Translations under genes and position numbers: made by a program
The notes under the pieces: model-generated
Told to the model about the DNA's origin: nothing
What the model saw: the letters and a program-made list of their open reading frames with translations, nothing else
Databases searched by the model: none
Source of the DNA: an uncultured Planctomycetia bacterium
Lineage (GTDB): Bacteria > Omnitrophota > Gorgyraeia > Duberdicusellales > 4484-171
Direction of reading: 5' to 3'
DNA length: 64,000 nt
Assembly (NCBI GenBank): GCA_964536865.1
Contig: CAZHYN010000002.1
Span: forward strand, 64,608 to 128,607
In this document: one piece after another, positions 45,317-58,575 of the stretch
Numbering within the stretch: position 1 is the stretch's first letter
Layout: every line of letters begins with the position of its first letter

Positions 45317-46399
45317 CTAAAGATTTACGGTTCTTACAAAATGTAAAGGAGTTCTTTCCTTTATTAATCCCTTTAGGCGCAAACTGACCACAGTCTTGTT
45401 TACCATATCAAAACTTAAGCCAGTCTTTAAAATAAGTTCCTCTAAGTGAGTTCCTTTTTCTGAAATAGCTTCTAACGTCCTTCTCTCCTGAGGAGAAAGA
45501 GATAATCCCCTTTTGCCTTTGTGAGCTTCTATCTCTATATCTAAGTTTAGTTCTTCTAAGATATCTTCTATACCCTCCACTAACTTTGCTCCTTCTCTTA
45601 TAAGAAAATTAGTCCCTTTACTCAAAGGAGAATTAGCCTGCCCGGGAAGAGCAAAGACCTCACGATTCTGTTCACAGGCGTAGCGAGCAGTAATTAAAGC
45701 CCCGCTCTTAGCAGAGGCTTCAACTACCAGTACCCCCTTAGAAAGTCCACTTATTATCCTATTACGCCGGGGAAAATTCTCTCTTAACGGTGGCTCAAAG
45801 AGAGAGAATTCACTAACTAAAGCTCCTTCTTCTGAAATCTTGTAAGCTAACTTCCTGTTCTCTTTAGGATAGAGATTAAGAAGACCACTTCCTAATACAG
45901 CAACCGTTTTCCCTCCTCTTAAGGCAGATCTGTGAACCTGAGTATCTATTCCTCGAGCTAAACCAGAAACAACTACTATCCCTAAAGAGGCGAGACCAAA
46001 AGAAAACCTTTCTGCCATACTCAAACCGTAAACAGTAGGTATCCTACTTCCTACAATAGCAAAACATATTTGACTTAATACCTCTCTTTCTCCTTTAACG
46101 TAGAGGACAGGGGGAGCAAAAACTATCTCTTTAAGAAGAGGGGGATAATCTTGAGAAAAAATATCTATAATCTCTATCCCTTCTTTTTCTGCAATCTCTA
46201 ATTCCTTCTCTATCTGGAATGAGTTCTTTACTGAGAAAAACTTTTCTATCTCATAATCTTTAAAGTGTAGCTTCTCTCTTAGAGATCCGCTACCCATTTT
46301 TAGAATTTCATCAGGGTCAGCAAAAATAGAAACTGCTCTTTGAATCTTTTGAGGCGATATCTTTATGTGATTAAGCAGAAGGAGTGATTTTTTTATCAT
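45317..46399 (-). CDS. dprA: DNA processing protein DprA (Smf)
   Basis: VVSGLARGIDTQVH Rossmann core. Confidence 0.85.
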   Translation of the reverse strand: MIKKSLLLLNHIKISPQKIQRAVSIFADPDEILKMGSGSLREKLHFKDYEIEKFFSVKNSFQIEKELEIAEKEGIEIIDIFSQDYPPLLKEIVFAPPVLYVKGEREVLSQICFAIVGSRIPTVYGLSMAERFSFGLASLGIVVVSGLARGIDTQVHRSALRGGKTVAVLGSGLLNLYPKENRKLAYKISEEGALVSEFSLFEPPLRENFPRRNRIISGLSKGVLVVEASAKSGALITARYACEQNREVFALPGQANSPLSKGTNFLIREGAKLVEGIEDILEELNLDIEIEAHKGKRGLSLSPQERRTLEAISEKGTHLEELILKTGLSFDMVNKTVVSLRLKGLIKERTPLHFVRTVNL

Positions 46400-46901
46400 C
46401 TTTTAGAATCTCCATAATCTTATCCACCACTTGAGAGGGATTTAAACCAGAAGTATCTACTCTTAAGGGAACCTGGTGATAAAAAGGAGAACGATAAGCA
46501 AGAAGCTCCTCTATCTTTTTCTTAGGGTCAGCTACATTGAGAAGAGGACGATGCGTGTAACTTTTCGTCCTTTCATAGATTACCTCAACACTGGCTTCAA
46601 GACATACAGGTATTCCTGTAGCTTTAAGAATTTGTAAATTCTCTCTATCGATTACTATCCCTCCTCCACAGCTTACCACTAAATTTTTTCTCTCAGCAAT
46701 TTCTTTTAAAACTTCTTTTTCAACTTTTCTAAAATAACTCTCTCCATATAAGGAAAATATGTCTACAATTTTTTTGTTCTCTTTCTTTTCTATCTCTTCA
46801 TCCATCTCTATAAATTCTCTATTTAGCCTTTTAGCTAAAAGCTTACCCACAGTGGTTTTGCCTGTTCCCATAAATCCTACGATATATATGTTCTTATCCA
46901 T
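46371..46901 (-). CDS. aroK: Shikimate kinase
   Basis: IYIVGFMGTGKTTVGKLLA P-loop. Confidence 0.85.
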   Translation of the reverse strand: MDKNIYIVGFMGTGKTTVGKLLAKRLNREFIEMDEEIEKKENKKIVDIFSLYGESYFRKVEKEVLKEIAERKNLVVSCGGGIVIDRENLQILKATGIPVCLEASVEVIYERTKSYTHRPLLNVADPKKKIEELLAYRSPFYHQVPLRVDTSGLNPSQVVDKIMEILKDDKKITPSA

Positions 46902-46943
46902 TTTCTCAAAATTTATACTACAAATGGCGATTTGTCAACTCTT

Positions 46944-47022
46944 AAGTAAAACCCGAACCACGGGCTTACCCTCGCCCTTTCAAGGAAAGGGCGAGGTGGC
47001 TTTCTGTGGTTCGGGGTAAATA
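46944..47022. repeat. GC-rich nested palindrome: outer stem CCCGAACCAC/GTGGTTCGGG around inner CCTCGCCCTTTC-aag-GAAAGGGCGAGG; copy B of the family also seen at 32237-32297
   Basis: Shares the CGCCCTTTC...GAAAGGGCG core and TTTACCCCG / GTTCGGG flanks with copy A. Confidence 0.6.
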
Positions 47023-47091
47023 CTTCAATATATATTTTACTTGAAGAGAGAGTAAAGAGATGATAAGATTGAGAAGAAAGGGAGGAGGATT

Positions 47092-47715
47092 ATGAAAGAC
47101 GAAATGGATATCTTAAAAGAAGTAGGAAACACCGCTGCTGCTCATGGTAGTATTGCTCTCTCAGAAATCTTAGGGAAAAAAATCAAACTTCATCTTCCTG
47201 TTGTAGACATAATTCCTTGCAAGAATATAGGAAAAGCAATGCCTCAGGAAGGAATGAGTATAACTCTACAAACTCAACTCTTAAGTGGTTTAGATGGGAA
47301 AGTTGTTTTTATTTTGGAGGAAAAGCAAGCCTACAAACTTATCGATATATGCTATACAGGGGGAGAGATCAAAAAAACTGGAATATTTACGGAAATGGGA
47401 ATGAGTCTAATAAAAGAAGTAGGAAATGTAGTTATTGCTAGTTACATAAGTGCTTTAGGGTTCTTTCTAAGAAAATTAATTGTTCCCTCTCTACCTATAC
47501 TTATAAATGCTCCACTCCAAGAGATTATAAAACTTGTAGTTGCCGGTTACGGGGAACATGACTACGTATTGGTAGTAGAGAGTATCTTTGAAGAGTCAGA
47601 AACTAAAATAAAAGGGACTTTCTGGCTCCTTCTTGCTCCTGATTCTGTAAAGCAGATAAAGGAAGCTTGTAAGAAGCTGTTAGAAGAAGTAGGTAAAAAT
47701 GATGGAGGAAACTAG
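47092..47715 (+). CDS. CheC-like chemotaxis phosphatase (two CheC repeats)
   Basis: DILKEVGNTAAAHGSIALSEILG and a second LIKEVGNVVIASYISALG repeat. Confidence 0.65.
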   Translation: MKDEMDILKEVGNTAAAHGSIALSEILGKKIKLHLPVVDIIPCKNIGKAMPQEGMSITLQTQLLSGLDGKVVFILEEKQAYKLIDICYTGGEIKKTGIFTEMGMSLIKEVGNVVIASYISALGFFLRKLIVPSLPILINAPLQEIIKLVVAGYGEHDYVLVVESIFEESETKIKGTFWLLLAPDSVKQIKEACKKLLEEVGKNDGGN

Positions 47716-48631
47716 TAACATCTTAATCTTTACTCCGGATTCCGAACTAAAGGAGTATATCCAAAAACTTATCAAAGGAGAAGGTTATGAGGTGGATGAA
47801 GTCAATCAATTAGAGATGCTTCAGGAGAAGCTATCTCAAGAGAAAGTGGGACTTCTTCTCATTGATTCCATGGGAAGCAGTACCATAGATATATGTAAAA
47901 AAGTAAGATCTGATTTTACGTTACGCCATATTCCTATAATTGTAATAGTGGAAAAGGAAAGTACTATAGAAAAGATAAAAGTTATTTATGCGGGAGCTGA
48001 CGACTATGTAGAAAAACCTATTAATGCAGGAGAGTTGCTTATACGGATAAAAGCAAACCTTTGGCGAGCTAACCGTGACTTAGATGCCAATCCTTTAACC
48101 AAACTTCCTGGTAATGTTTCTATATTTAGGGAGTTAGAAAAGAGACTAAGAAACAAAGAATTTTTCTGTGTAGGATATGCGGATTTAGATAAGTTTAAAG
48201 AATACAACGACTACTATGGATTTGAGTGGGGAGACAAAGTAATAAAACATACAGCTAAAATTTTAACTAATGCTCTAAAAGAAGCAGGTTCACCCAACGA
48301 TTTTCTTGGACATATAGGAGGTGACGATTTCATCTTTATTACCGGCTGGGAAAGTATTAATAATGTATGCGAAAATATCATAGAGAACTTCGATAAAACT
48401 ATTCCTTCCTTCTATAAAGAGGAAGATTTAAAAAAGAGATATATTATTGTAAAAAACCGTTTAGGGAAAGTAACTTCTGTCCCTATACTCACAATCTCCA
48501 TTGGAGTAGCTACTAATGAAAAGAGATCTTTAGCTCACGTGGGTCAAATAATTCAAATAGCTACGGAATTAAAAACCTACGCTAAAACTTTTTCTAAGAG
48601 CTTGTATATAATCGATCGTCGAAGAGGTTAA
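47699..48631 (+). CDS. Response regulator with receiver + GGDEF diguanylate cyclase domain (GGDDF variant, no RxxD I-site)
   Basis: Receiver LLLIDSMGS...; GGDEF body ...[13 protein letters not shown]...[10 protein letters not shown]...TISIGVA. Confidence 0.75.
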
Positions 48632-50250
48632 CTACCTTCAAACTTAAATTTCTTCATTAACTCTTCCACTGACTTCGCTAGTTCACTTAGCTGCTGTGCT
48701 GAACTGACCATCTCTTCCATAGAGGTAGTCTGCTCCTGGATAGAAGCACTAGCTTCTTCTACTCCTGCAGATGTCCCTTCAATGATAGAGGCTACCTCCT
48801 CTACTGCCTTTACTCCTTCTTCAGTTCGAGCAAGCTGCTCAGATATGACTTTTACTATCTGCTGAGCCATAGTATTGGCTTCATTTACCGAAGAAATCAC
48901 TTCCTTTAAAGTATTTCTTACCTCTATTACTACGTTTCTTCCTTCAGTTACTTCTTTGGAACCAATCTCTATAGAAGAAATCGCTTTACCTATATCTTCC
49001 TGAATACTCTTTATCAAACCACCAATACGGCTAGCAGCTTGAGCAGAATTTTCTGCTAACTTTCTTATCTCATCAGCAACTACACCAAAACCTCTTCCTG
49101 CTTCTCCAGCACGTGCTGCTTCAATGGCAGCATTCAAGGATAAAAGATTAGTTTGGTCAGCAATATTAGTAATGGTAACAGTGATCTCTCCAATCTGTTG
49201 AGACCTTTCCTCTAAGATACGCATAACCTCCACGTTTTTATTTACCGTATCAAATACTCTATCCATTTTTTCTGATAAAGTGGGAATTTTCTCTCCACTT
49301 AAATTTACTTGAGAAGCTGCAGAAGCAGAAACATCAGCGGTGTTTTTTGCCTTATCACCAACTTCTCTTAAGGATACATTAACCTCTCCCATAATCCTAG
49401 ATACATTTTCCACCTTAACTGTCTGGTCAGTAACGCCCTTGGAGAGTTGAGCCATGGCAGCACTTATCTGCTGTATAACTTCACTCATCTGATGAGTTAT
49501 ATCTACAAACTGATGAGACGTCTCACTAATCTTTCTCCCCACTCTGCTGATTTCTAAAAGCGTGCCTTTCCAGAAAGAAACTATCTTATTTAGAATGTTA
49601 TTCAGTTTCCCTACTTTCTCTATACTTTTCTCTATTTCCTTAGGAAATCTTCCCTCTGCTATCTCTTCAAAGATAGAAACGAAACGATCAATAGGATGAA
49701 AAAGACGAGCAGAGAGGAATTTTACTAAAAAGAAAACTAACACCACTCCTGCCAAGAGAGGAATCACAATAGTAGTTGCTACCTTAGAAACTGCTTTTGT
49801 TACTATCTTAGAATTTTTGACTAAGGAGAGGAATCCCAATAGCTTACCTTCTTCGTCCTTTATAGGATGAAGAACACCAATCACTCTGTAGCCTAAGAGT
49901 TTCTCTATCCTCTCCTTATCTAGTTTGTTAATATCTATACTCTTATCTAACAATTTTGGGCTGCTACTAATTTCCACTCTTCCTTTCCTATCAGTAACAG
50001 CAACTACAAAATTCTGTAAAGTTTTGCTAAAAACTTTCAGGCTATCCTCTATTCCAGACTTACCCTCCTTAACCCACCTATTACTTACCGCAGCCTCTAA
50101 AACTTTTGCTAAATTCTTTAAAGCTTCTCCTTCTCGACTATAAATAACACTCTTTTGGTAGAAAAAACTAACTACACCCATAATAAAGAAAAATATGCAC
50201 AGAACAGTGGTAATCCAAATAGTAATTTTATCCTTCAAAAATTTTGGCAC
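48628..50250 (-). CDS. Methyl-accepting chemotaxis protein (membrane-anchored)
   Basis: TM helix; conserved signalling hairpin [33 protein letters not shown]. Confidence 0.85.
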
Positions 50251-50385
50251 CCCGCCCTCCTTGTTAACAACTTTTCTCGTTCATCAAAATTATATTTAAA
50301 AAAAGACGCACTCCCCCCTTTAAGGCAAAGTTTCAGGATAACACTTCCTTATCCAGAAAATTAGGCTTCTAAATTAACTAGGAAA

Positions 50386-50679
50386 TTAAGCTTCTAAAGG
50401 TAGTGTACTTACTTTCTCAAATTCAACTGCTACTTCCCACATCCCTTCCTTTTCCATCACTCTACTAACTTTACCTCTAACAAAGAAAGAACCTATAGTG
50501 GGAAGAATTTTGAACTCTCCGTAGATAATCGAACCTATCTCCACAGGGCGAGAAAGGTTAATCTTCATTCCTCCTGCGCTAATATCAACGACCTTCCCTT
50601 CTTCTCTTACCCCCGCACAGGAAATAACTGCCTTCTCCTCCTCTACGTACCAACGATTAAATTTGCGTCTCTCTTCCAT
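50386..50679 (-). CDS. PilZ-domain c-di-GMP receptor
   Basis: RRKFNR (RxxxR) and DISAGGMKI (DxSxxG) motifs. Confidence 0.75.
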   Translation of the reverse strand: MEERRKFNRWYVEEEKAVISCAGVREEGKVVDISAGGMKINLSRPVEIGSIIYGEFKILPTIGSFFVRGKVSRVMEKEGMWEVAVEFEKVSTLPLEA

Positions 50680-50695
50680 CTTTTATCCCTCCTTT

Positions 50696-51319
50696 CTATT
50701 CACCTTCTTTAACTCCTAAAGCCTTAAATAATTTCCTTAAAGATTCTAAATCAGGAAAAAATAAAAGGCAACCCCCAAAATCCATATCTCTTACTTTTAA
50801 TTCTGTTCTTATAAAAATGGCTTCATCGCTATGCTGAGCTATATGGATGAAAAAAAAGTCCATTATTGCTCCCACCATATCCATAGCTAATGAGGGGGTA
50901 GTATACATTATAGTAAAACCAGTCATATCAGAAAGAACATTCATATAAGCTCCTACTAAAATGTTAACCATTTCTCTCAAAGAGGAAAGGAACATGCCAT
51001 CGTTAAGGTCTACTTCCTCAGGAGGTTTCCCTAACAGAGTGCTCCCTAGGATCTTACCCTCTTGAGGTGCTAAAAGAAAGAATACCCTACCAGAGATTTC
51101 TCCCTCTACCCCAATATCTAAAACAAAATATAAATCTTCCGGATTACCCAAAACTTTATGGAGAGACTCTAAAGGTACTAATTTTGTCTCAGGGAGAGTA
51201 ATCTCTACTTTGCAATTAAGAAGCTCAGCTAAAGCAGTAGCGGATCTACCTGCTCCGATAGTCCCTACTTCTTTAAGAACATCTAACTGGTTCGAAGAAA
51301 TTTTTTTAGTTTCATCCAT
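50696..51319 (-). CDS. cheC: CheC-family phosphatase
   Basis: LDVLKEVGTIGAGRSATALAELL CheC consensus. Confidence 0.75.
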   Translation of the reverse strand: MDETKKISSNQLDVLKEVGTIGAGRSATALAELLNCKVEITLPETKLVPLESLHKVLGNPEDLYFVLDIGVEGEISGRVFFLLAPQEGKILGSTLLGKPPEEVDLNDGMFLSSLREMVNILVGAYMNVLSDMTGFTIMYTTPSLAMDMVGAIMDFFFIHIAQHSDEAIFIRTELKVRDMDFGGCLLFFPDLESLRKLFKALGVKEGE

Positions 51320-52346
51320 CTTTCAAATATTCTAAAATTTTGTCAGGTATTTTACTTACAGGTAAAATTTCATCAGCCAATTTTGCCTCTATTACTGCCC
51401 TAGGCATCCCATAAACCACACAACTTGCCTCATCCTGAGCAATTATCCTACCTCCTTTTTCTTTCACCTTCCTTGCTCCTTCTAACCCATCTTTACCCAT
51501 TCCAGTAAGAATTACCACTACTATCTCACCATCAAATACTTCCGCCAAAGAAGTTAAAGTCACGTCTATCGCTGGTCTTACATAGTTTACCAATGCTGTC
51601 TCATCTAATCTTATGCAATAACCCTCTAGGGCCTTTTCTATCATCATATGATATCCTGAGGGAGCTACAAATCCTGCTCCTTTTATAAGAAAATCCCCAT
51701 CTTCGGCTTCCTTTATCTTGATATTTGAATACCACGAAAGTCTCTCAGCAAAACTTCTGGTAAATCCTGGGGGCATATGTTGAATAATCAGAAAAGTATA
51801 ATCACAGTAGGAAGGAAATGTTTGCATTAAATCTAGTATGGCTTTAGGGCCACCAGTAGAAGCGCCTATTGCCACTATCTTTTTTACTGCTAGTTTCTCT
51901 TTATCAACGACTTTCTCTACCGTTAGAGAAAGAAACTTATTTAAATCTACCCTAGCAGTTAACTTAATCTTGGAGATTATTTCCTCTCTAAAATTATATA
52001 AATCTAAGGATACTTCCCCGCTAGGTTTAGGAATGAAGTCCAATGCTCCAAGTTCTAACGCTTTCATAGTAACTTTTGCCCCTCTCTGGGTATAGGCGGA
52101 GAGCATAACTACTCGTGTAGGGAAATTATGCATAAGTTCTTCTAGTACTTTCAACCCACTTATATCAGGAAGATTTACATCCAAGGTCACTACATCGGGC
52201 TTCAGCTCTGGAATCCTTTGGAGAGCCTCTCTTCCCAACTTAGTAGATCCTACCACTTCTATTTGAGGCTCACTGGATAAAATATCTCCTATTACTTTCT
52301 GCATTAAAATTGAATCTTCTACAATAAAGACTCTTACTTTTCTCAT
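51312..52346 (-). CDS. cheB: Chemotaxis methylesterase CheB (receiver + methylesterase)
   Basis: N-terminal receiver; GASTGGPKAI methylesterase motif. Confidence 0.9.
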   Translation of the reverse strand: MRKVRVFIVEDSILMQKVIGDILSSEPQIEVVGSTKLGREALQRIPELKPDVVTLDVNLPDISGLKVLEELMHNFPTRVVMLSAYTQRGAKVTMKALELGALDFIPKPSGEVSLDLYNFREEIISKIKLTARVDLNKFLSLTVEKVVDKEKLAVKKIVAIGASTGGPKAILDLMQTFPSYCDYTFLIIQHMPPGFTRSFAERLSWYSNIKIKEAEDGDFLIKGAGFVAPSGYHMMIEKALEGYCIRLDETALVNYVRPAIDVTLTSLAEVFDGEIVVVILTGMGKDGLEGARKVKEKGGRIIAQDEASCVVYGMPRAVIEAKLADEILPVSKIPDKILEYLKDG

Positions 52347-52840
52347 ACTTCTTTTTCTCCCTGAAACATCGTCTTTATTCTAACTTTGCCTGTATCTAAA
52401 TCAAAGAAAATAGTTCTTCCGTAGCTACCCCCAGTATCCTCTCCTACAATTTTGATCCCATGAGAAGCCAAAATCTCTCTTGCCTTATCGATATTTTTAC
52501 CTCCTACATTAAAAGGGCTATCTAAAGGAATAGAACTAAACATATGAGCTCCACCGAAAAGTTTTGCTACCAGTTGATGAGGTTGAACCCCCCGCTTCTT
52601 TAACTCATCAATCATAATGCCCACGGCAGAATCTACATACTTAGCAGGGTTAAACTTAGCTTTCGCATCAGCGATAGAAGGCAACATAGCATGAGCTAAA
52701 GCTCCTATCTTTTTTCTAGGTTCATAGACAGCGATACCAATACAAGATCCTAACCCCCGAGTGACGAGTACATCTGGAAAGCTTCCTACTCTTACCTCTG
52801 CCATACCTACTTCTATAAGATTACCTTTCCTTGCCTCCAT
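52343..52840 (-). CDS. cheD: Chemoreceptor glutamine deamidase CheD
   Basis: LGSCIGIAVYEP active-site Cys region. Confidence 0.85.
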   Translation of the reverse strand: MEARKGNLIEVGMAEVRVGSFPDVLVTRGLGSCIGIAVYEPRKKIGALAHAMLPSIADAKAKFNPAKYVDSAVGIMIDELKKRGVQPHQLVAKLFGGAHMFSSIPLDSPFNVGGKNIDKAREILASHGIKIVGEDTGGSYGRTIFFDLDTGKVRIKTMFQGEKEV

Positions 52841-52855
52841 GTTGAGAGATTTCTC

Positions 52856-53230
52856 CTATTCTCCTAACACTCTCCTTATAGCTTCTACAACACGAGATGG
52901 CTGAAATGGTTTTACGATAAAGTCCTTAGCTCCTGCCTGAATTGCTTCTACTACTAAAGCGTGCTGGCCCATAGCAGAAACCATTACAATTTTAGCATTA
53001 GGATCAATCCGCATAATCTCCTTTACCGCTCCAATCCCATCGATCTCTTCCATCTTAGGCATAACAATATCCATTGTAACTAAATCTGGCTTTAACTCCT
53101 TATACTTCTCAATCGCCTCTTTACCATTCTCTGCTTCGCCACAAATTTCAAAACCTTCTTTCTTTAAGATGTCTCCTAGCATCCTACGCATGAAGAGAGC
53201 ATCATCAACTATTAAGATTTTTGTCGGCAT
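52856..53230 (-). CDS. cheY: Chemotaxis response regulator CheY
   Basis: ILIVDDALFMRR...DIVMP...KPF single receiver. Confidence 0.85.
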   Translation of the reverse strand: MPTKILIVDDALFMRRMLGDILKKEGFEICGEAENGKEAIEKYKELKPDLVTMDIVMPKMEEIDGIGAVKEIMRIDPNAKIVMVSAMGQHALVVEAIQAGAKDFIVKPFQPSRVVEAIRRVLGE

Positions 53231-53259
53231 ACTAACCTCCTTTTTAACCTCGCCCTTTT

Positions 53260-54105
53260 CTATATCTTAACAAATATTTTATCAAGTAGACTTACAGGTT
53301 TAAAATAATTCCTTAGAGAAACACCTACACTCTCTACTTTCCCGAGAACTAAGTATCCTCCCTCCTTTAAGGACTTATGTACCTCTAAGAGAATTCTCTC
53401 GCTTTCCTCTAAACTAAAATATATTCTTACATTTCTAAAAAAGACCACATCTATAAACTTTAAGGGTGGGTCAAATAGTAAGTTGTGTTTTCTAAAAGTA
53501 ACCACTTCCTTTAAAGTATCTTTAACTTGATAAAGCCCTTTGCCTAAGGGAGTAAAATACTTATTTAAAATTAGAGGATCTACATTCCTCAAAGATCTCT
53601 CTGAGTAAATACCTTCCCTGGCTTTCTTTAAAGCTTGCTCATCAATATCGGTACCGTATATTTTTAAAACAAACTTATCGTTTATATTTATATTTTTTAA
53701 CTTCTCCAAAAAAATAATTGCTAAAGAATAGGGCTCCTCCCCACAAGAACACCCAGATGACCAACACCGTATCGTTTTCTCTCTTTGCTCTCTTTTCCTC
53801 TCTATTAGAGAGGGGATACAGATATCTCTAAACGTAGCAAAGACTTCGGGATCACGGAAAAGTTCAGAAACATTTATACTGAGGTTATCAAAAAAAATAT
53901 CCCATTCTTGAGGTTGTTTTTTTAATATCTGAATATAACCCAATAAATTATCCAAACCTAAATGGCTAAGTCTTAGCTTCAGTCTGCGGGTAAGAAAGCT
54001 TTTTCTATAGGAGGTTAAGTCTATTCCTCGATGTTTCCTTACAAAATTAAAGAAAAGGTCAATCTCATGGGAAGAAAAAAAATCTTTCTTTTCCACTTCC
54101 ACCAT
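53260..54105 (-). CDS. cheR: Chemotaxis methyltransferase CheR
   Basis: CheR all-alpha N-domain plus SAM-MTase domain (IRCWSSGCSCGEEPYSLAI). Confidence 0.85.
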   Translation of the reverse strand: MVEVEKKDFFSSHEIDLFFNFVRKHRGIDLTSYRKSFLTRRLKLRLSHLGLDNLLGYIQILKKQPQEWDIFFDNLSINVSELFRDPEVFATFRDICIPSLIERKREQREKTIRCWSSGCSCGEEPYSLAIIFLEKLKNININDKFVLKIYGTDIDEQALKKAREGIYSERSLRNVDPLILNKYFTPLGKGLYQVKDTLKEVVTFRKHNLLFDPPLKFIDVVFFRNVRIYFSLEESERILLEVHKSLKEGGYLVLGKVESVGVSLRNYFKPVSLLDKIFVKI

Positions 54106-54109
54106 GCTT

Positions 54110-54373
54110 TTAATGTTGGGGAGCCTTTTTAACCTTCTCTATTGCCTTGGTGAGCTCTTTAACTACATCAGCTCTAAGCTGAAGTTCAAGTTCAGCTATT
54201 TTAGTGTATACTCTCCCTTTATCGGTAACCACATATTTAGAGGGGAGATTATTTAAAGCTAAAGCCATTATATCCAATGTACACTTTTCACATTTGCATA
54301 CATCGTTTCTTCTGGAAAGTAAATTTTCCAAAGTATTTTTCACTATATCCTCCATGTAATTATGGCATTCCAT
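54110..54373 (-). CDS. ComFB-family small protein (4-Cys)
   Basis: NYMEDIVKNTLENLL...VCKCEKCTLDIMALALNNLPSKYVV matches the ComFB family signature. Confidence 0.7.
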   Translation of the reverse strand: MECHNYMEDIVKNTLENLLSRRNDVCKCEKCTLDIMALALNNLPSKYVVTDKGRVYTKIAELELQLRADVVKELTKAIEKVKKAPQH

Positions 54374-54450
54374 TATCCACCTCCTTAGAAAATAGTAGTA
54401 TAAAATTAATTATTTTATACGTCAATAGAAAAATCATTTTTAACTATAAA

Positions 54451-56370
54451 TTACTTTATATTAACTACATCCAAGATTAAAGCTATCCGACCGTCACCTA
54501 AGATAGTTCCTCCTGCAATCCCTCTTATTCTTTTAACGAAGGAACCCAAAGGTTTTACTACAATATCCTGCTCACCTATCACTTTATCTACAACCAGACC
54601 CATACTTTTTGTTCTACCTTCTACTATCACTACCGAGATTTCTTCCTTCTCGTAAGTAGCTAATGTCTTCATCCCTAACTCCTTATCTAACCTAAGAATA
54701 GGAACAATCTCTTCTCTTACACGCATCACTTCTATATCTTTTATTCTTTTTAGCTCCGCTTCTTTTACCTTTACTGTCTCTCGGATGTTCATAAGAGGAA
54801 TAGCATAAATCTGTTCTCCAATAACGACTAACATAGCTTTTATAATAGCTAAAGTTAAAGGTAAAGTAAGAATAAATTTTGTTCCCTTCCCTCGCTGCGT
54901 CTCCAAATCCAATCTTCCTCCCAGAGCATCTAACTTGTTACGTACTACATCTAATCCCACTCCTCGGCCTGATACATCAGTCACTTTCTCACTGGTAGAG
55001 AAACCAGGCATAGTAAGGATATCTAAAATTTGACGATAGTCATTTTTGGAAACCTCTTGAGGAGAAATTAGTCCTTTTTCTGCTGCAGCAGCTACCACCT
55101 TATCTATATCTATCCCCCTCCCATCGTCACTAATCTCTATTATAATATGACCCTTCTCTCGGGATACTTTGATAAGTATCTTACCACGGGGGGGTTTACC
55201 TATTTTCCTTCTCTCTTGAGGAGTCTCTATTCCATGGTCTATAGCATTTCTAATAAGGTGTACTAAAGGATCACCTATCTCATCTAAAACTACCCTGTCT
55301 AACTCTATCTCACTGCCCACTATGTCTAAATCTACCTCCTTACCTTCTTTCCGAGATAGATCTCTTACAATCCGAGGGAAATTATCCAGGATATAAGAAA
55401 CAGGTAAGAGCCTCATCTTCAATGCCTCATCCTGAAGAGAAGAGACCAATCTTTCGATAAGATAAGTGGTCTCTTCTAAAGCTGTATAATCCTTGCTTAT
55501 TACAGTCTGAGTAAGTCTACTTTTAGTAATAGCTAACTCCCCCATCAGATTCATAATCTTATCTAATCGCTCTACCGGTATCCGCATACTCTGAATCTTC
55601 TTAATATAAGGGGTAGTTTTTCCTTTTTTTCTTTCTACTTTCTCAGCAGAAGAAGTGAATTTAGAAACTCTAATCTCCTTAACTTCTAAAATCTTAGAAA
55701 CTTCTTCTTTGATTTTTTCTGGCGGTTCCTTAGTAGCCAAAAAGAAATGAAATGAATTTCCAAATGTACCGGCTTTCAACTTATCCTCAGAAGGGATAAC
55801 CTGGATTATTTGACCTAACATTCTCACTCTCTTAAGAATAAGAAAGGCCCTTGCCCCTTTAAGAAGACAGTCATCTTGCAGGGTTACTTCCACTTTTAAG
55901 AGTTCCTTATTCTCCTTCCTTAACTTTTTAATATACTCCTCATCTATGTGTGTTGGATATTCCTGAAGAACTTGAGGATATTCTTTTCTCTCTTCTTTAG
56001 AGACTAAACTACTTAACCTTACTAAATAGGAAGGAATATCTACAGATATAGGTTTCTCTTCTCTTAACTCCTCTACAACAGTAGTAAAGGCATCGATACT
56101 CTCAAAAACAACATCCATTATCTCAGGCGTCAGTGTTGATTTACCAGACCGGAAATTATCAAAAGTGTCCTCTAAATGATGAGCAAACTCTGCCAACTCT
56201 TTATATCCCATAGTTGCTGCCATCCCTTTAAGGGTATGCATATGTCGGAATATCTCATTTATGGATTGTTCATCATGAGGATTCTTTTCTAAATTAACTA
56301 AAGCTTTATTTATCTCCTTCAGATACTCTTGGGACTCACTGAAGAATAGCTCACGATAATTCTTTTCCAT
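54451..56370 (-). CDS. cheA: Chemotaxis histidine kinase CheA (Hpt, dimerisation, kinase, C-terminal CheW-like P5)
   Basis: HTLKGMAATMG Hpt His; HATPase G-boxes; C-terminal CheW-like domain. Confidence 0.9.
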   Translation of the reverse strand: MEKNYRELFFSESQEYLKEINKALVNLEKNPHDEQSINEIFRHMHTLKGMAATMGYKELAEFAHHLEDTFDNFRSGKSTLTPEIMDVVFESIDAFTTVVEELREEKPISVDIPSYLVRLSSLVSKEERKEYPQVLQEYPTHIDEEYIKKLRKENKELLKVEVTLQDDCLLKGARAFLILKRVRMLGQIIQVIPSEDKLKAGTFGNSFHFFLATKEPPEKIKEEVSKILEVKEIRVSKFTSSAEKVERKKGKTTPYIKKIQSMRIPVERLDKIMNLMGELAITKSRLTQTVISKDYTALEETTYLIERLVSSLQDEALKMRLLPVSYILDNFPRIVRDLSRKEGKEVDLDIVGSEIELDRVVLDEIGDPLVHLIRNAIDHGIETPQERRKIGKPPRGKILIKVSREKGHIIIEISDDGRGIDIDKVVAAAAEKGLISPQEVSKNDYRQILDILTMPGFSTSEKVTDVSGRGVGLDVVRNKLDALGGRLDLETQRGKGTKFILTLPLTLAIIKAMLVVIGEQIYAIPLMNIRETVKVKEAELKRIKDIEVMRVREEIVPILRLDKELGMKTLATYEKEEISVVIVEGRTKSMGLVVDKVIGEQDIVVKPLGSFVKRIRGIAGGTILGDGRIALILDVVNIK

Positions 56371-56376
56371 AATGAT

Positions 56377-56982
56377 TTAAATTTCGGTAGCTTTAAGAAG
56401 AATCTCCAAGCCCTTAGGATTGGGTAGGAGAAAAAAATGTCCGGTAACTTTTGTTGTGGCTTCACTAAACTCTGATTTTATAAGTAAAGCGTAAGGAGAA
56501 ATATTACTCAATTCTATAAGAATGTAATCTACCATTGCTCCTGCCATATCCTCAATAACTTCAGGGACGGTGGGAACAAGTCCCCACTTTACAAACACGG
56601 AGAGTGCTCCCAGATAAGCGTTGGCTAGAATCACTCCTATTTCTTTAAGAGCTGAACGTTCCATATCAGTTATTACTCCTCCGTTAGATGACTTTCTATT
56701 AGTTAACAGAGAAGCTAATCCTAACGCATCTTTATGGGAAAAGATAAGAAGAATCACACTGGGAAAGTCACCTAGAATTCTTACAATTAACCCTACAACT
56801 AATTTCTCTTCTCCTACAATTTGAGGAACTTTCTCCACAGGAAGAAAATAAATTTCGGGGACATTTATTTCTATTTTCTTATTGGTAAGTTGAGATAGAG
56901 CAGTAGCAGCGTTACCTGCACAGATATTCCCAATTTCTCTTAGAGCATCTTTTTGAAACTCATCGAACTTTATCTCTTCCAT
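56377..56982 (-). CDS. CheC/CheX-like phosphatase
   Basis: ALREIGNICAGNAATALSQL CheC consensus. Confidence 0.7.
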   Translation of the reverse strand: MEEIKFDEFQKDALREIGNICAGNAATALSQLTNKKIEINVPEIYFLPVEKVPQIVGEEKLVVGLIVRILGDFPSVILLIFSHKDALGLASLLTNRKSSNGGVITDMERSALKEIGVILANAYLGALSVFVKWGLVPTVPEVIEDMAGAMVDYILIELSNISPYALLIKSEFSEATTKVTGHFFLLPNPKGLEILLKATEI

Positions 56983-57372
56983 CTACTTATTTTCCGAAGA
57001 GATGGCTTTCTTTATTACCTCCAAGAGCTTCTCTGCAGTAAAGGGTTTAATCACGAAGTCCTTAGCCCCATAAGCTAAAGCCTCCTGAACCAATCTCCTA
57101 TCCCCCAAAGCGGAAATAACCACAATTTTTGCCTCAGGATCAAAGGATATAATTTCCCTTACTGCACTAATCCCATCCATTTCTTCCATCATAGGCATTA
57201 CAATATCCAAAGTAACTAAATCTGGATTGAGCTCCTTATACTTCTGCACTCCCTCTAAGGCGTTGGATGCTTCTCCACAGATCTCAAAACCTGCCTTTAC
57301 TAGAATATCCCTTATAAGATTTCTCATGAATAAAGCATCATCAACTATTAATACACGTTTCCTCTCCATCAT
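56983..57372 (-). CDS. CheY-like response regulator (second copy)
   Basis: VLIVDDALFMRN...DIVMP...KPF. Confidence 0.8.
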   Translation of the reverse strand: MMERKRVLIVDDALFMRNLIRDILVKAGFEICGEASNALEGVQKYKELNPDLVTLDIVMPMMEEMDGISAVREIISFDPEAKIVVISALGDRRLVQEALAYGAKDFVIKPFTAEKLLEVIKKAISSENK

Positions 57373-57414
57373 TACTTATTATACCTTCTTCTTAAAAATC
57401 CACAATAAAAAACT

Positions 57415-58575
57415 TTACTTAGTATACTTTTTTATAAGACTCAGAGCAATTATATTCTTCTGAATCTGATTGGTCCCTTCATATATCTGAGTAATCTTAG
57501 CATCGCGCATGAATTTCTCTATTCCATACTCACGCATATACCCGTAACCTCCAAAAATCTGCACAGCTTCAGTAGTAACTTCCATAGCAACATCGGAAGC
57601 AAAAAGCTTTGCACAAGCAGAGGCTGCTCCAATATCCTTCTTACCTCTATCTACCATAGAGGCAACAGCGTAAACTAAGCTTCTTGCTGCTTCTATTTTC
57701 GTAGCCATATCTGCTAGCATCCATTGAATTCCCTGAAAAGAAGTGATAACCTTACCAAACTGGACTCTTTTGTGGGCGTACTCTACGGCTAACTCTAACG
57801 ACCCTTGAGCAATACCTACCGCTTGAGCAGCTACCCCTGGTCGAGATTGCTCAAATGTCTTCATAGTAACAATGAATCCTGTGCCCTCTTTCCCTCCTAA
57901 AAGGTTCTCTGCAGGAACTTTTGCTTCGTTAAAGATAAGCTCCCTGGTAGAAGAAGCTCTTATTCCCATCTTTTCTTCTTTCTTACCAAATTCAAAACCC
58001 CCAGCTCCTTTCTCTATAATAAAAGCAGACATTCCTCTCGGTCCTCTCTTTTTGTCAGTAACAGCAATCACGGTATAGATATCTGCTTCTCCTCCATTAG
58101 TAATAAAATGTTTAGTGCCATTAAGAATATAAGAATCACCTTCTTTCCTTGCAGTAGTCTTTACTGCTGCAGCGTCAGAGCCTGCTTCTGGCTCAGTAAG
58201 ACAAAAAGCAGCTAATTTTTCTCCCGAAGCAATACTAGGCAGATACCTTTTTTTCTGCTCTTCGGTACCAAACAAAAGGATAGGAAACATACCTAAGAAA
58301 GAGGCAGCATAAGAAGCAGCAATTCCTCCGTCTATACGAGAAATTTCTTCAGTAGCGATACACAACTCAAGTAATCCTCCCCCCATTCCTCCATACTCTT
58401 GGGGAATACATATCCTAAAAAGATCAGACTGAGCTAAAACTTCCATAATAAAACGAGGGAATTCTTCCTTCTCATCAAACTCTCTCGATACTGGCTTAAT
58501 CTTCGTTTCAGCAACTTGCCGACACAAATCTTTAAGCATTAACTGTTCTTCAGTTAACTGATACTCCACAAACAT
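57415..58575 (-). CDS. Acyl-CoA dehydrogenase
   Basis: ACAD three-domain similarity; C-terminal QIFGGYGYMREYGIEKFMRDAKITQIYEGTNQIQ. Confidence 0.85.
   Translation of the reverse strand: MFVEYQLTEEQLMLKDLCRQVAETKIKPVSREFDEKEEFPRFIMEVLAQSDLFRICIPQEYGGMGGGLLELCIATEEISRIDGGIAASYAASFLGMFPILLFGTEEQKKRYLPSIASGEKLAAFCLTEPEAGSDAAAVKTTARKEGDSYILNGTKHFITNGGEADIYTVIAVTDKKRGPRGMSAFIIEKGAGGFEFGKKEEKMGIRASSTRELIFNEAKVPAENLLGGKEGTGFIVTMKTFEQSRPGVAAQAVGIAQGSLELAVEYAHKRVQFGKVITSFQGIQWMLADMATKIEAARSLVYAVASMVDRGKKDIGAASACAKLFASDVAMEVTTEAVQIFGGYGYMREYGIEKFMRDAKITQIYEGTNQIQKNIIALSLIKKYTK

Follow-up and report, generated by a model that had tools for sequence, protein, structure and literature searches.

A 64-kb window (64,000 nucleotides; positions 64,608 to 128,607 of contig CAZHYN010000002.1, assembly GCA_964536865.1) from an uncultured bacterium labeled Planctomycetia, which GTDB places in Omnitrophota, was analyzed. 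It contains a chemotaxis (che) cluster with a small ComFB-family gene, comFB, among its members. Read along the minus strand, the order is cheY, cheC/X, cheA, comFB, cheR, cheY, cheD, cheB, cheC, and pilZ, and then a gene for a methyl-accepting chemotaxis protein (MCP) (Table 1). The initial annotation, made from the sequence alone, had placed a ComFB-family gene between cheR and cheA, and this assignment was borne out. The Pfam hidden Markov model search that it had proposed as a check gave a strong match to ComFB (PF10719; 95.9 bits, E 1.5e-27, gathering cutoff 25 bits), covering residues 4–85 of the protein and positions 1–83 of the 83 in the profile. ComFB was the sole Pfam match of this protein, and the flanking genes were also assigned by Pfam.

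Table 1. Features of the che cluster and its immediate surroundings (window coordinates).
Feature	Position	Strand	Remarks
cheY	56983-57372	-	Pfam; head of cluster
cheC/cheX-like phosphatase	56377-56982	-	Pfam; head of cluster
cheA	54451..56370	-	Histidine kinase; Pfam Hpt, P2, dimerization, HATPase, and CheW-like domains
Promoter-like element TTGACG-17 nt-TATACT	54397..54425	-	cheA–comFB gap; sigma-70-like consensus match
Shine-Dalgarno AAGGAGGT	54379..54386	-	Strong; 5 nt 5' of the comFB ATG; read from the sequence
comFB	54110..54373	-	87-aa stand-alone ComFB-family open reading frame, ATG to TAA; Pfam PF10719
cheR	53260..54105	-	281-aa receptor glutamate methyltransferase; Pfam CheR_N and CheR, 176.5 bits
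cheY	52856-53230	-	Pfam
cheD	52343-52840	-	Pfam
cheB	51312-52346	-	Pfam
cheC	50696-51319	-	Pfam
PilZ-domain protein	50386-50679	-	Pfam; 97 aa, single domain; final gene of the che operon
MCP	48628..50250	-	Pfam MCPsignal, 138.7 bits; likely substrate of CheR
REC-GGDEF-like response regulator	47699-48631	+	Pfam; GGDDF motif; overlaps the CheC-like gene
CheC-like gene	47092-47715	+	Pfam; convergent to the che operon

The three genes cheA, comFB, and cheR are all on the minus strand. The cheA gene (54451-56370) and the comFB start are separated by 77 nt, and the comFB stop codon TAA (54110-54112) is followed by a 4-nt spacer and the cheR ATG at 54105. The 4-nt spacing suggests translational coupling of comFB and cheR. 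The ratio of nonsynonymous to synonymous substitution rates (dN/dS) of comFB was 0.055 in comparison with a relative whose protein is 91% identical and 0.10 with one at 77%, indicating that comFB is a real gene under purifying selection. Its Shine-Dalgarno sequence was also kept in four related loci (L085, L086, L087, and L047). The same four loci retained TTGACG followed after 17 nt by a TATnnT box, despite saturated synonymous sites. In the window, this element was the top sigma-70-like match in 53000–57800, agreeing at 10 of 12 positions, which suggests a candidate internal promoter within the che cluster. With such an element upstream, comFB may head its own transcription unit, comFB-cheR-cheY-cheD-cheB-cheC-pilZ. 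A scan of the cheA–comFB gap for intrinsic terminators gave nothing meaningful.

The window protein was modeled using AlphaFold 2 with 27 homologues. The model was helical, with a predicted local distance difference test (pLDDT) score of 83.6 and a predicted template modeling (pTM) score of 0.74. A Foldseek search of the PDB with this model returned Bacillus subtilis ComFB (4WAI; probability 1.0, template modeling score 0.70), followed by Synechocystis CdgR in complex with cyclic di-GMP (c-di-GMP) (8HJA; probability 0.98, template modeling score 0.61); the other matches were noise. The phmmer search of the PDB with the protein sequence also found 4WAI and 8HJA. The ComFB/CdgR family (PF10719) is an established group of receptor proteins for c-di-GMP as well as cyclic di-AMP (c-di-AMP); four proteins have been tested, all of them bound c-di-GMP, and some also bound c-di-AMP (PMC12448109). 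Motility is inhibited by ComFB in B. subtilis and also altered by it in Shewanella, and a chemotaxis effect is not excluded by those assays (PMC12448109). The cyanobacterial member CdgR is described as a c-di-GMP effector controlling cell size (PMC10068817). The window protein shares with this family the full-length domain, the predicted helical fold, the CxCxxC motif, the dimer residues, and most of the c-di-GMP contact residues; most members, like it, consist of this one domain alone.

The CxCxxC motif of the comFB product is C26-K-C28-E-K-C31, and the LNNLP..YVV motif of ComFB that the initial annotation had recognized is present as LNNLPSKYVV (residues 40–49). The annotation had also described a 4-Cys signature; its CxCxxC part stood, and the fourth cysteine did not. 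Cysteine at position 3 was found in just two of 73 stand-alone homologues, the window protein and its nearest relative, while C26, C28, C31, and the C-terminal His87 were invariant in all 73. A four-cysteine site including the cysteine at position 3 was rejected because that residue is not conserved. The zinc ligands of B. subtilis ComFB are Cys25, Cys27, Cys30, and Cys88 (PMC12448109), and the numbering of the window protein equals that of B. subtilis ComFB plus one. The zinc site is likely of the Cys3-His type (three cysteines and one histidine; C26, C28, C31, and H87), with His87 as the fourth ligand candidate replacing Cys88. The window ComFB is probably zinc-stabilized and dimeric.

The published dimer residues of ComFB are N4, E7, D33, N40, and Y46, and the c-di-GMP contacts are D33, N40, R/K41, A36, L37, V47, and Y55 (B. 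subtilis numbering; PMC12448109). The window protein carries the equivalents N5, E8, D34, A37, L38, N41, Y47, V48, and Y56. Six of the seven contacts are kept (D34, N41, A37, L38, V48, and Y56); the seventh, a basic residue in B. subtilis ComFB, is Asn42. Among the 73 stand-alone homologues, N5, E8, D34, N41, and Y47 were invariant or nearly so, A37 and V48 were each present in 70, position 56 was always aromatic, and L38 was the most variable.

The gene neighborhoods of relatives were surveyed at 80 genome loci (13 che clusters and 67 others) and 80 metagenome loci (58 judgeable che clusters). The nearest homologues, with up to 97% identity, were from metagenome-assembled genomes (MAGs) of Candidatus Omnitrophota. 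In all 13 genome che clusters, comFB was located directly 5' of cheR, which was followed by cheY, cheD, cheB, cheC, and sometimes pilZ. All 13 clusters were Omnitrophota-like, a few of them with other bin labels. In the metagenome che clusters, cheR was immediately 3' of comFB in 54 of 58, with gaps of -4 to +37 nt. Over genome and metagenome loci together, the gap ranged from -4 to about +160 nt, and the called comFB and cheR reading frames overlap in L152. The 67 non-che genome loci, from Actinomycetota, Bacillota, FCPU426, and other groups, had no che genes within 6 kb; the neighbors of comFB there were endonuclease V, aroK-aroQ-pepP, pilM, and genes for giant proteins of ~2000 aa. The window ComFB differs from the described ComFB/CdgR receptors in being a fixed che-operon member directly 5' of cheR, not one in a comF, pilus, hfq, or flagellar context.

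As these loci had been found through ComFB, CheR was used as a second starting point. All three of its closest homologues located on long contigs, at 52, 50, and 47% identity, belonged to clusters of the window type with comFB directly 5' of cheR. Three other CheR-side clusters (45–47% identity; L167, L168, and L170) lacked comFB and had the architecture cheA-cheW-cheC-cheD-cheR, followed by a KaiC-like ATPase gene. The neighborhood comparison suggested by the initial annotation therefore found comFB in orthologous che clusters when reached from ComFB and, independently, from CheR. The gene 5' of comFB was variable. It was cheA, as in the window, in five of the 13 genome clusters and ~16 of the 58 metagenome clusters, and cheC in a few.

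Some of the MAGs with Omnitrophota-type ComFB che clusters (L002–L005) are labeled Planctomycetia or Deltaproteobacteria, and some CheR relatives (P0255 and P0283) are labeled Desulfurococcales or Thaumarchaeota archaeon. These odd labels are probably binning or labeling artefacts; otherwise the range of the cluster is wider than Omnitrophota.

In a neighbor-joining tree of 81 ComFB sequences, all 14 che-linked sequences formed one clade that contained no others. Arg54 marked this separate clade: among che-linked sequences, 13 of the 14 from genomes and 53 of the 61 from metagenomes had it, and none of the non-che ones did (0/66 and 0/17, respectively). Arg54 sits between the invariant Gly53 and the guanine-stacking residue Tyr56, a position in which it could serve either ligand binding or partner docking. 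In the 61 metagenome che-linked sequences, D34 and N41 were invariant, and position 56 was tyrosine in 52 and phenylalanine or tryptophan in nine.

ComFB and CheR were also found fused. A database search with a fusion returned ComFB-CheR proteins of 357–396 aa with full-length coverage that make up at least 118 clusters at the 90% identity level (P0074–P0193 in this analysis). Most of them carry PF10719, PF03705, and PF01739, and all taxon-named ones are labeled Omnitrophota. This architecture is given one sentence in PMC12448109 (e.g., UniProt A0A1G1PT98), and our literature search found no other paper linking ComFB with CheR. The fused proteins come from the phylum of the window pair and combine the same domains, with ComFB on the N-terminal side of CheR, whereas the window pair is encoded by separate genes with a stop codon and the 4-nt spacer between them. 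In L008, a 363-aa fusion (L008:2269-3360) lies 5' of cheY-cheA in the same cluster as split comFB and cheR. L105:528-1613 and L121:528-1613 likewise have a fusion plus a split comFB and cheR pair, which is downstream of cheA, giving two ComFB/CheR units per operon. Compared with the window proteins, the fusions show ~40% identity for CheR and ~27% for ComFB, indicating that the fusions are paralogues, not orthologues, of the window pair. An AlphaFold 2 model of one fusion (pLDDT 89.2, pTM 0.74) was confident throughout, without a disordered linker; against the PDB it matched only CheR structures, on which its CheR portion superposed, including CheR1 bound to MapZ:c-di-GMP (5XLY). A search of the window found no second ComFB, no second CheR, and no fused copy.

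CheA was rejected as the partner of ComFB: most related clusters have a gene other than cheA upstream, so that its adjacency is not conserved. Together with the existence of natural ComFB-CheR fusions, this led us to take CheR as the conserved partner. The initial annotation had proposed a cyclic dinucleotide-dependent modulator of CheA/CheR. The cyclic-dinucleotide part gains support by inference from the receptor family and the six kept contacts, CheR was retained, and CheA was not.

The che operon encodes two candidate readers of cyclic dinucleotides, ComFB and the PilZ protein. The latter has intact RxxxR (R5–R9) and DxSxxG (D32–G37) motifs, and a pilZ gene recurs at the operon end in L003, L007, L008, L047, L086, L087, and L166. 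The CheC-like/REC-GGDEF-like gene pair also recurs at the end of related clusters, and the cyclic dinucleotide may come from its REC-GGDDF protein. Our best guess for the ligand is c-di-GMP, which we favor because a canonical PilZ protein is encoded in the same operon. The REC-GGDDF protein also gave a near-threshold match to Cas10/Cmr2 palm2 (26.1 bits against a cutoff of 27).

Taken as a whole, these data could be explained by a stand-alone ComFB that serves as a cyclic-dinucleotide receptor dedicated to the Omnitrophota che operon and acts on CheR to tune adaptation, a reading to which we give an even chance. The REC-GGDDF response regulator at the cluster end would possibly make the cyclic dinucleotide, and ComFB would bind it, most likely as c-di-GMP. 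Nucleotide-loaded ComFB would then bind CheR, encoded 4 nt downstream, and alter, most likely inhibit, the methylation of the chemoreceptor by CheR. The level of the second messenger would thereby set the adaptation state of the pathway. In this scheme, ligand binding, ligand identity, the ComFB-CheR interaction, and the direction of the effect are inferred, the interaction from the conserved adjacency and the natural fusions.

The nearest functional precedent comes from Pseudomonas aeruginosa, where the PilZ adaptor MapZ needs c-di-GMP in order to inhibit CheR1 (PMC6370697; PDB 5XLY, 5Y4R/5Y4S). The proposed logic is common to both systems: a small single-domain receptor loaded with c-di-GMP binds the methyltransferase and changes receptor methylation. 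The likeness is one of proposed function only. The folds are unrelated, a β-barrel in PilZ and a helical one in ComFB, and comFB, unlike the MapZ gene, is embedded in a che operon, at a distance from cheR that suggests translational coupling.

Several observations weigh against an action of ligand-loaded ComFB on CheR, and we considered them together with the alternatives that they favor. Gene order and fusion bear on the partnership only indirectly, and inhibition as the most likely direction of the effect is borrowed from MapZ by analogy. The cyclase-like protein of the cluster has the non-canonical motif GGDDF, not GGDEF or GGEEF, and GGDDF is kept in its orthologues at L003 and L008. The sole GGDDF enzyme reported to be active, Geobacter GSU1937, makes cyclic GMP-AMP and c-di-GMP (PMC8835794). 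Asn42 of the window ComFB occupies the position equivalent to Lys41 of B. subtilis ComFB, an electrostatic c-di-GMP contact, which is Arg or Lys in 58 of 61 che-linked relatives. With Asn42 in place of a basic residue, the affinity of the window ComFB for c-di-GMP may be lower. In four of the 58 metagenome che clusters (L091, L132, L136, and L138), comFB is followed by cheY and there is no adjoining cheR.

The last point also fits a cyclic-dinucleotide receptor with another target, such as a PilM-like ATPase, the type IV pilus machinery, CheA, or CheY, where the proximity of cheR would reflect operon packing. Immediately 5' of comFB, seven of the 13 genome and ~36 of the 58 metagenome che clusters encode a 712-aa protein (L001:3861-5999, with equivalents in L002, L005, L006, L027, L038, and L042), of which only the N-terminal half has an assignment, as FtsA/MreB/PilM-like (actin fold). 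In the non-che loci L146, L158, L064, and L068, comFB lies directly 5' of a ~320-aa pilM-like gene. The same order in Bacillota pilus operons makes PilM another candidate partner, and comFB has been reported inside type IV pilus operons (PMC12448109). Moreover, some fusions are outside che operons. At L082:8001-10209 (also L083 and L084), two tandem 362-aa fusion genes are divergent from a cluster resembling those of type IV pili and type II secretion systems (pseudopilins, PilM, and secretin). No cheA was found within 8 kb of the L082 pair, which makes them orphan CheR fusions located next to pilus genes, whereas the window pair is inside a che operon. On the other side, a search of the window gave no match to the 712-aa PilM-like protein, and flagellar or pilus genes were looked for across the 64 kb, where only housekeeping, lipopolysaccharide, and purine genes were met. 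The fusions that occur at scale involve CheR, not PilM, CheA, or CheY, and the neighbor of comFB varies far less on the cheR side than on the opposite one. We therefore regard a different target as unlikely, although it is the strongest of the rivals.

The fused proteins also bear on a second alternative, in which ComFB would be a ligand-independent, zinc-stabilized dimerization or docking module that pairs or localizes CheR, for example at the receptor array, with nucleotide binding being vestigial or irrelevant. The zinc ligands C26, C28, C31, and H87 were retained in 114–118 of the 118 fused homologues (His87 in 114), and, like most dimer residues (N5, E8, and Y47), they are kept whether ComFB stands alone or is fused. 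The fusions have largely replaced the residues of the canonical ligand site: N41 was present in 0/118, Y56 in 8/118, and D34 in 52/118. This loss indicates that the ComFB-CheR partnership does not need the canonical ligand site, and Asn42 of the window protein points the same way. The window ComFB itself, in contrast to the fused domains, retains N41, Y56, and D34. The invariance of D34 and N41 in the che-linked clade and the aromatic residue at position 56 are hard to explain without a ligand site, an argument softened by the inclusion of D34 and N41 among the published dimer residues. The binding of c-di-GMP by four of four ComFB proteins (PMC12448109) and the PilZ and GGDEF-like genes in the same cluster also speak against a mere docking module, which we judged quite improbable.

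It is very unlikely that ComFB instead controls expression, sequestering a transcription factor and releasing it in response to c-di-GMP, as proposed for CdgR, and thereby setting the expression of a comFB-cheR sub-operon. The c-di-GMP effector role described for CdgR (PMC10068817) and the conserved promoter-like element directly 5' of comFB are in its favor; no transcription-factor gene is conserved beside comFB in the che clusters, and the fusions join ComFB to an enzyme, CheR. A late-competence factor like B. subtilis ComFB that lies in a che operon by chance is hardly credible: databases label the homologues "competence protein ComFB" and dprA is ~8 kb off (45317-46399), but the window protein scored 42.4 bits against a cutoff of 120 with the NCBIfam Bacillus ComFB equivalog NF052654 and the window open reading frames that were scanned included neither comFA nor comFC, which ruled out a B. 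subtilis competence orthologue; comFA-comFB-comFC operons are restricted to the B. subtilis group, and ComFB of B. subtilis is dispensable for transformation (PMC12448109); and the conservation of the che-operon placement among sequences with saturated synonymous sites effectively refutes it. The initial annotation was thus right that the gene does not encode a competence factor, while its premise that ComFB genes are normally linked to competence is out of date.

Returning to ComFB as a receptor acting on CheR, the cluster can be compared with the Wsp-type system (WspR), in which a che-like cluster is also tied to a GGDEF-type response regulator; here, too, the pathway may make a cyclic dinucleotide. 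The window cluster differs from Wsp in its GGDDF motif, in its extra CheY, CheC, and CheD components, and in having two candidate readers, ComFB and PilZ, within the operon, which suggests feedback onto adaptation and not output alone. A self-contained feedback circuit can be imagined on this basis, and we consider it doubtful in its full form. CheA would phosphorylate the REC-GGDDF protein, for which the CheC-like protein would be a dedicated phosphatase, and this protein would make a cyclic dinucleotide that is possibly not plain c-di-GMP. ComFB, via CheR, and PilZ would then reset receptor methylation, and Arg54 would be a determinant of CheR docking or specificity. If so, adaptation would be driven by the nucleotide output of the pathway itself, and ComFB would become the first receptor outside the PilZ class shown to govern the methylation of chemoreceptors.

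The ComFB family, its receptor function, and the ComFB-CheR fusion are already in print. In the literature searched, we did not find a description of a stand-alone comFB as a fixed, monophyletic, and apparently ligand-competent che component just 5' of cheR, nor of the likely Cys3-His zinc site, the Arg54 signature, or the contrast with the degenerate fused domains, all of which we read from sequence comparison. That ComFB is a widespread family of cyclic-dinucleotide receptors was recognized only in 2023–2025, and very few members have an identified direct target. The tie of a ComFB clade to cheR, through gene order for one paralogue and through fusion for another, points to the adaptation methyltransferase as a target that can be tested. 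If the proposal holds, cyclic-dinucleotide control of receptor methylation would have arisen at least twice with unrelated folds (PilZ/MapZ and ComFB), and it would give a first functional handle on signaling in uncultured Omnitrophota. A c-di-GMP specialist would not find this surprising in principle, and the window proteins are small and can be tested recombinantly.

Other features of the comFB loci were also recorded. In an Omnitrophota MAG, a non-che comFB is followed by genes for a flavin mononucleotide-binding protein and a REC-HD-GYP-type (HD_5) response regulator (L043:4927-7260), a further link of comFB to cyclic-dinucleotide turnover. In FCPU426 and some other lineages (L011, L019, L021, L022, L034, L035, L039, and L071), a giant reading frame of ~1500–2000 aa with weak repeat-type Pfam matches follows comFB. 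In many Bacillota, comFB is immediately 5' of aroK-aroQ-pepP (e.g., L044:6261-8416). In the window, aroK (shikimate kinase) and dprA are just past the che cluster (45317-46901, minus strand), and the recurrence of aroK near comFB in phyla so distant is possibly a coincidence. No separate cheW was present in window positions 46900–57400 or in any ComFB-type che cluster fetched, the sole CheW-like domain being the C-terminal one of CheA. Directly 5' of the first cheY, the window has an acyl-CoA dehydrogenase gene (57415-58575, minus strand). This gene was also found in a relative whose CheR is 47% identical (L169:1-54), indicating that synteny reaches beyond the che cluster.

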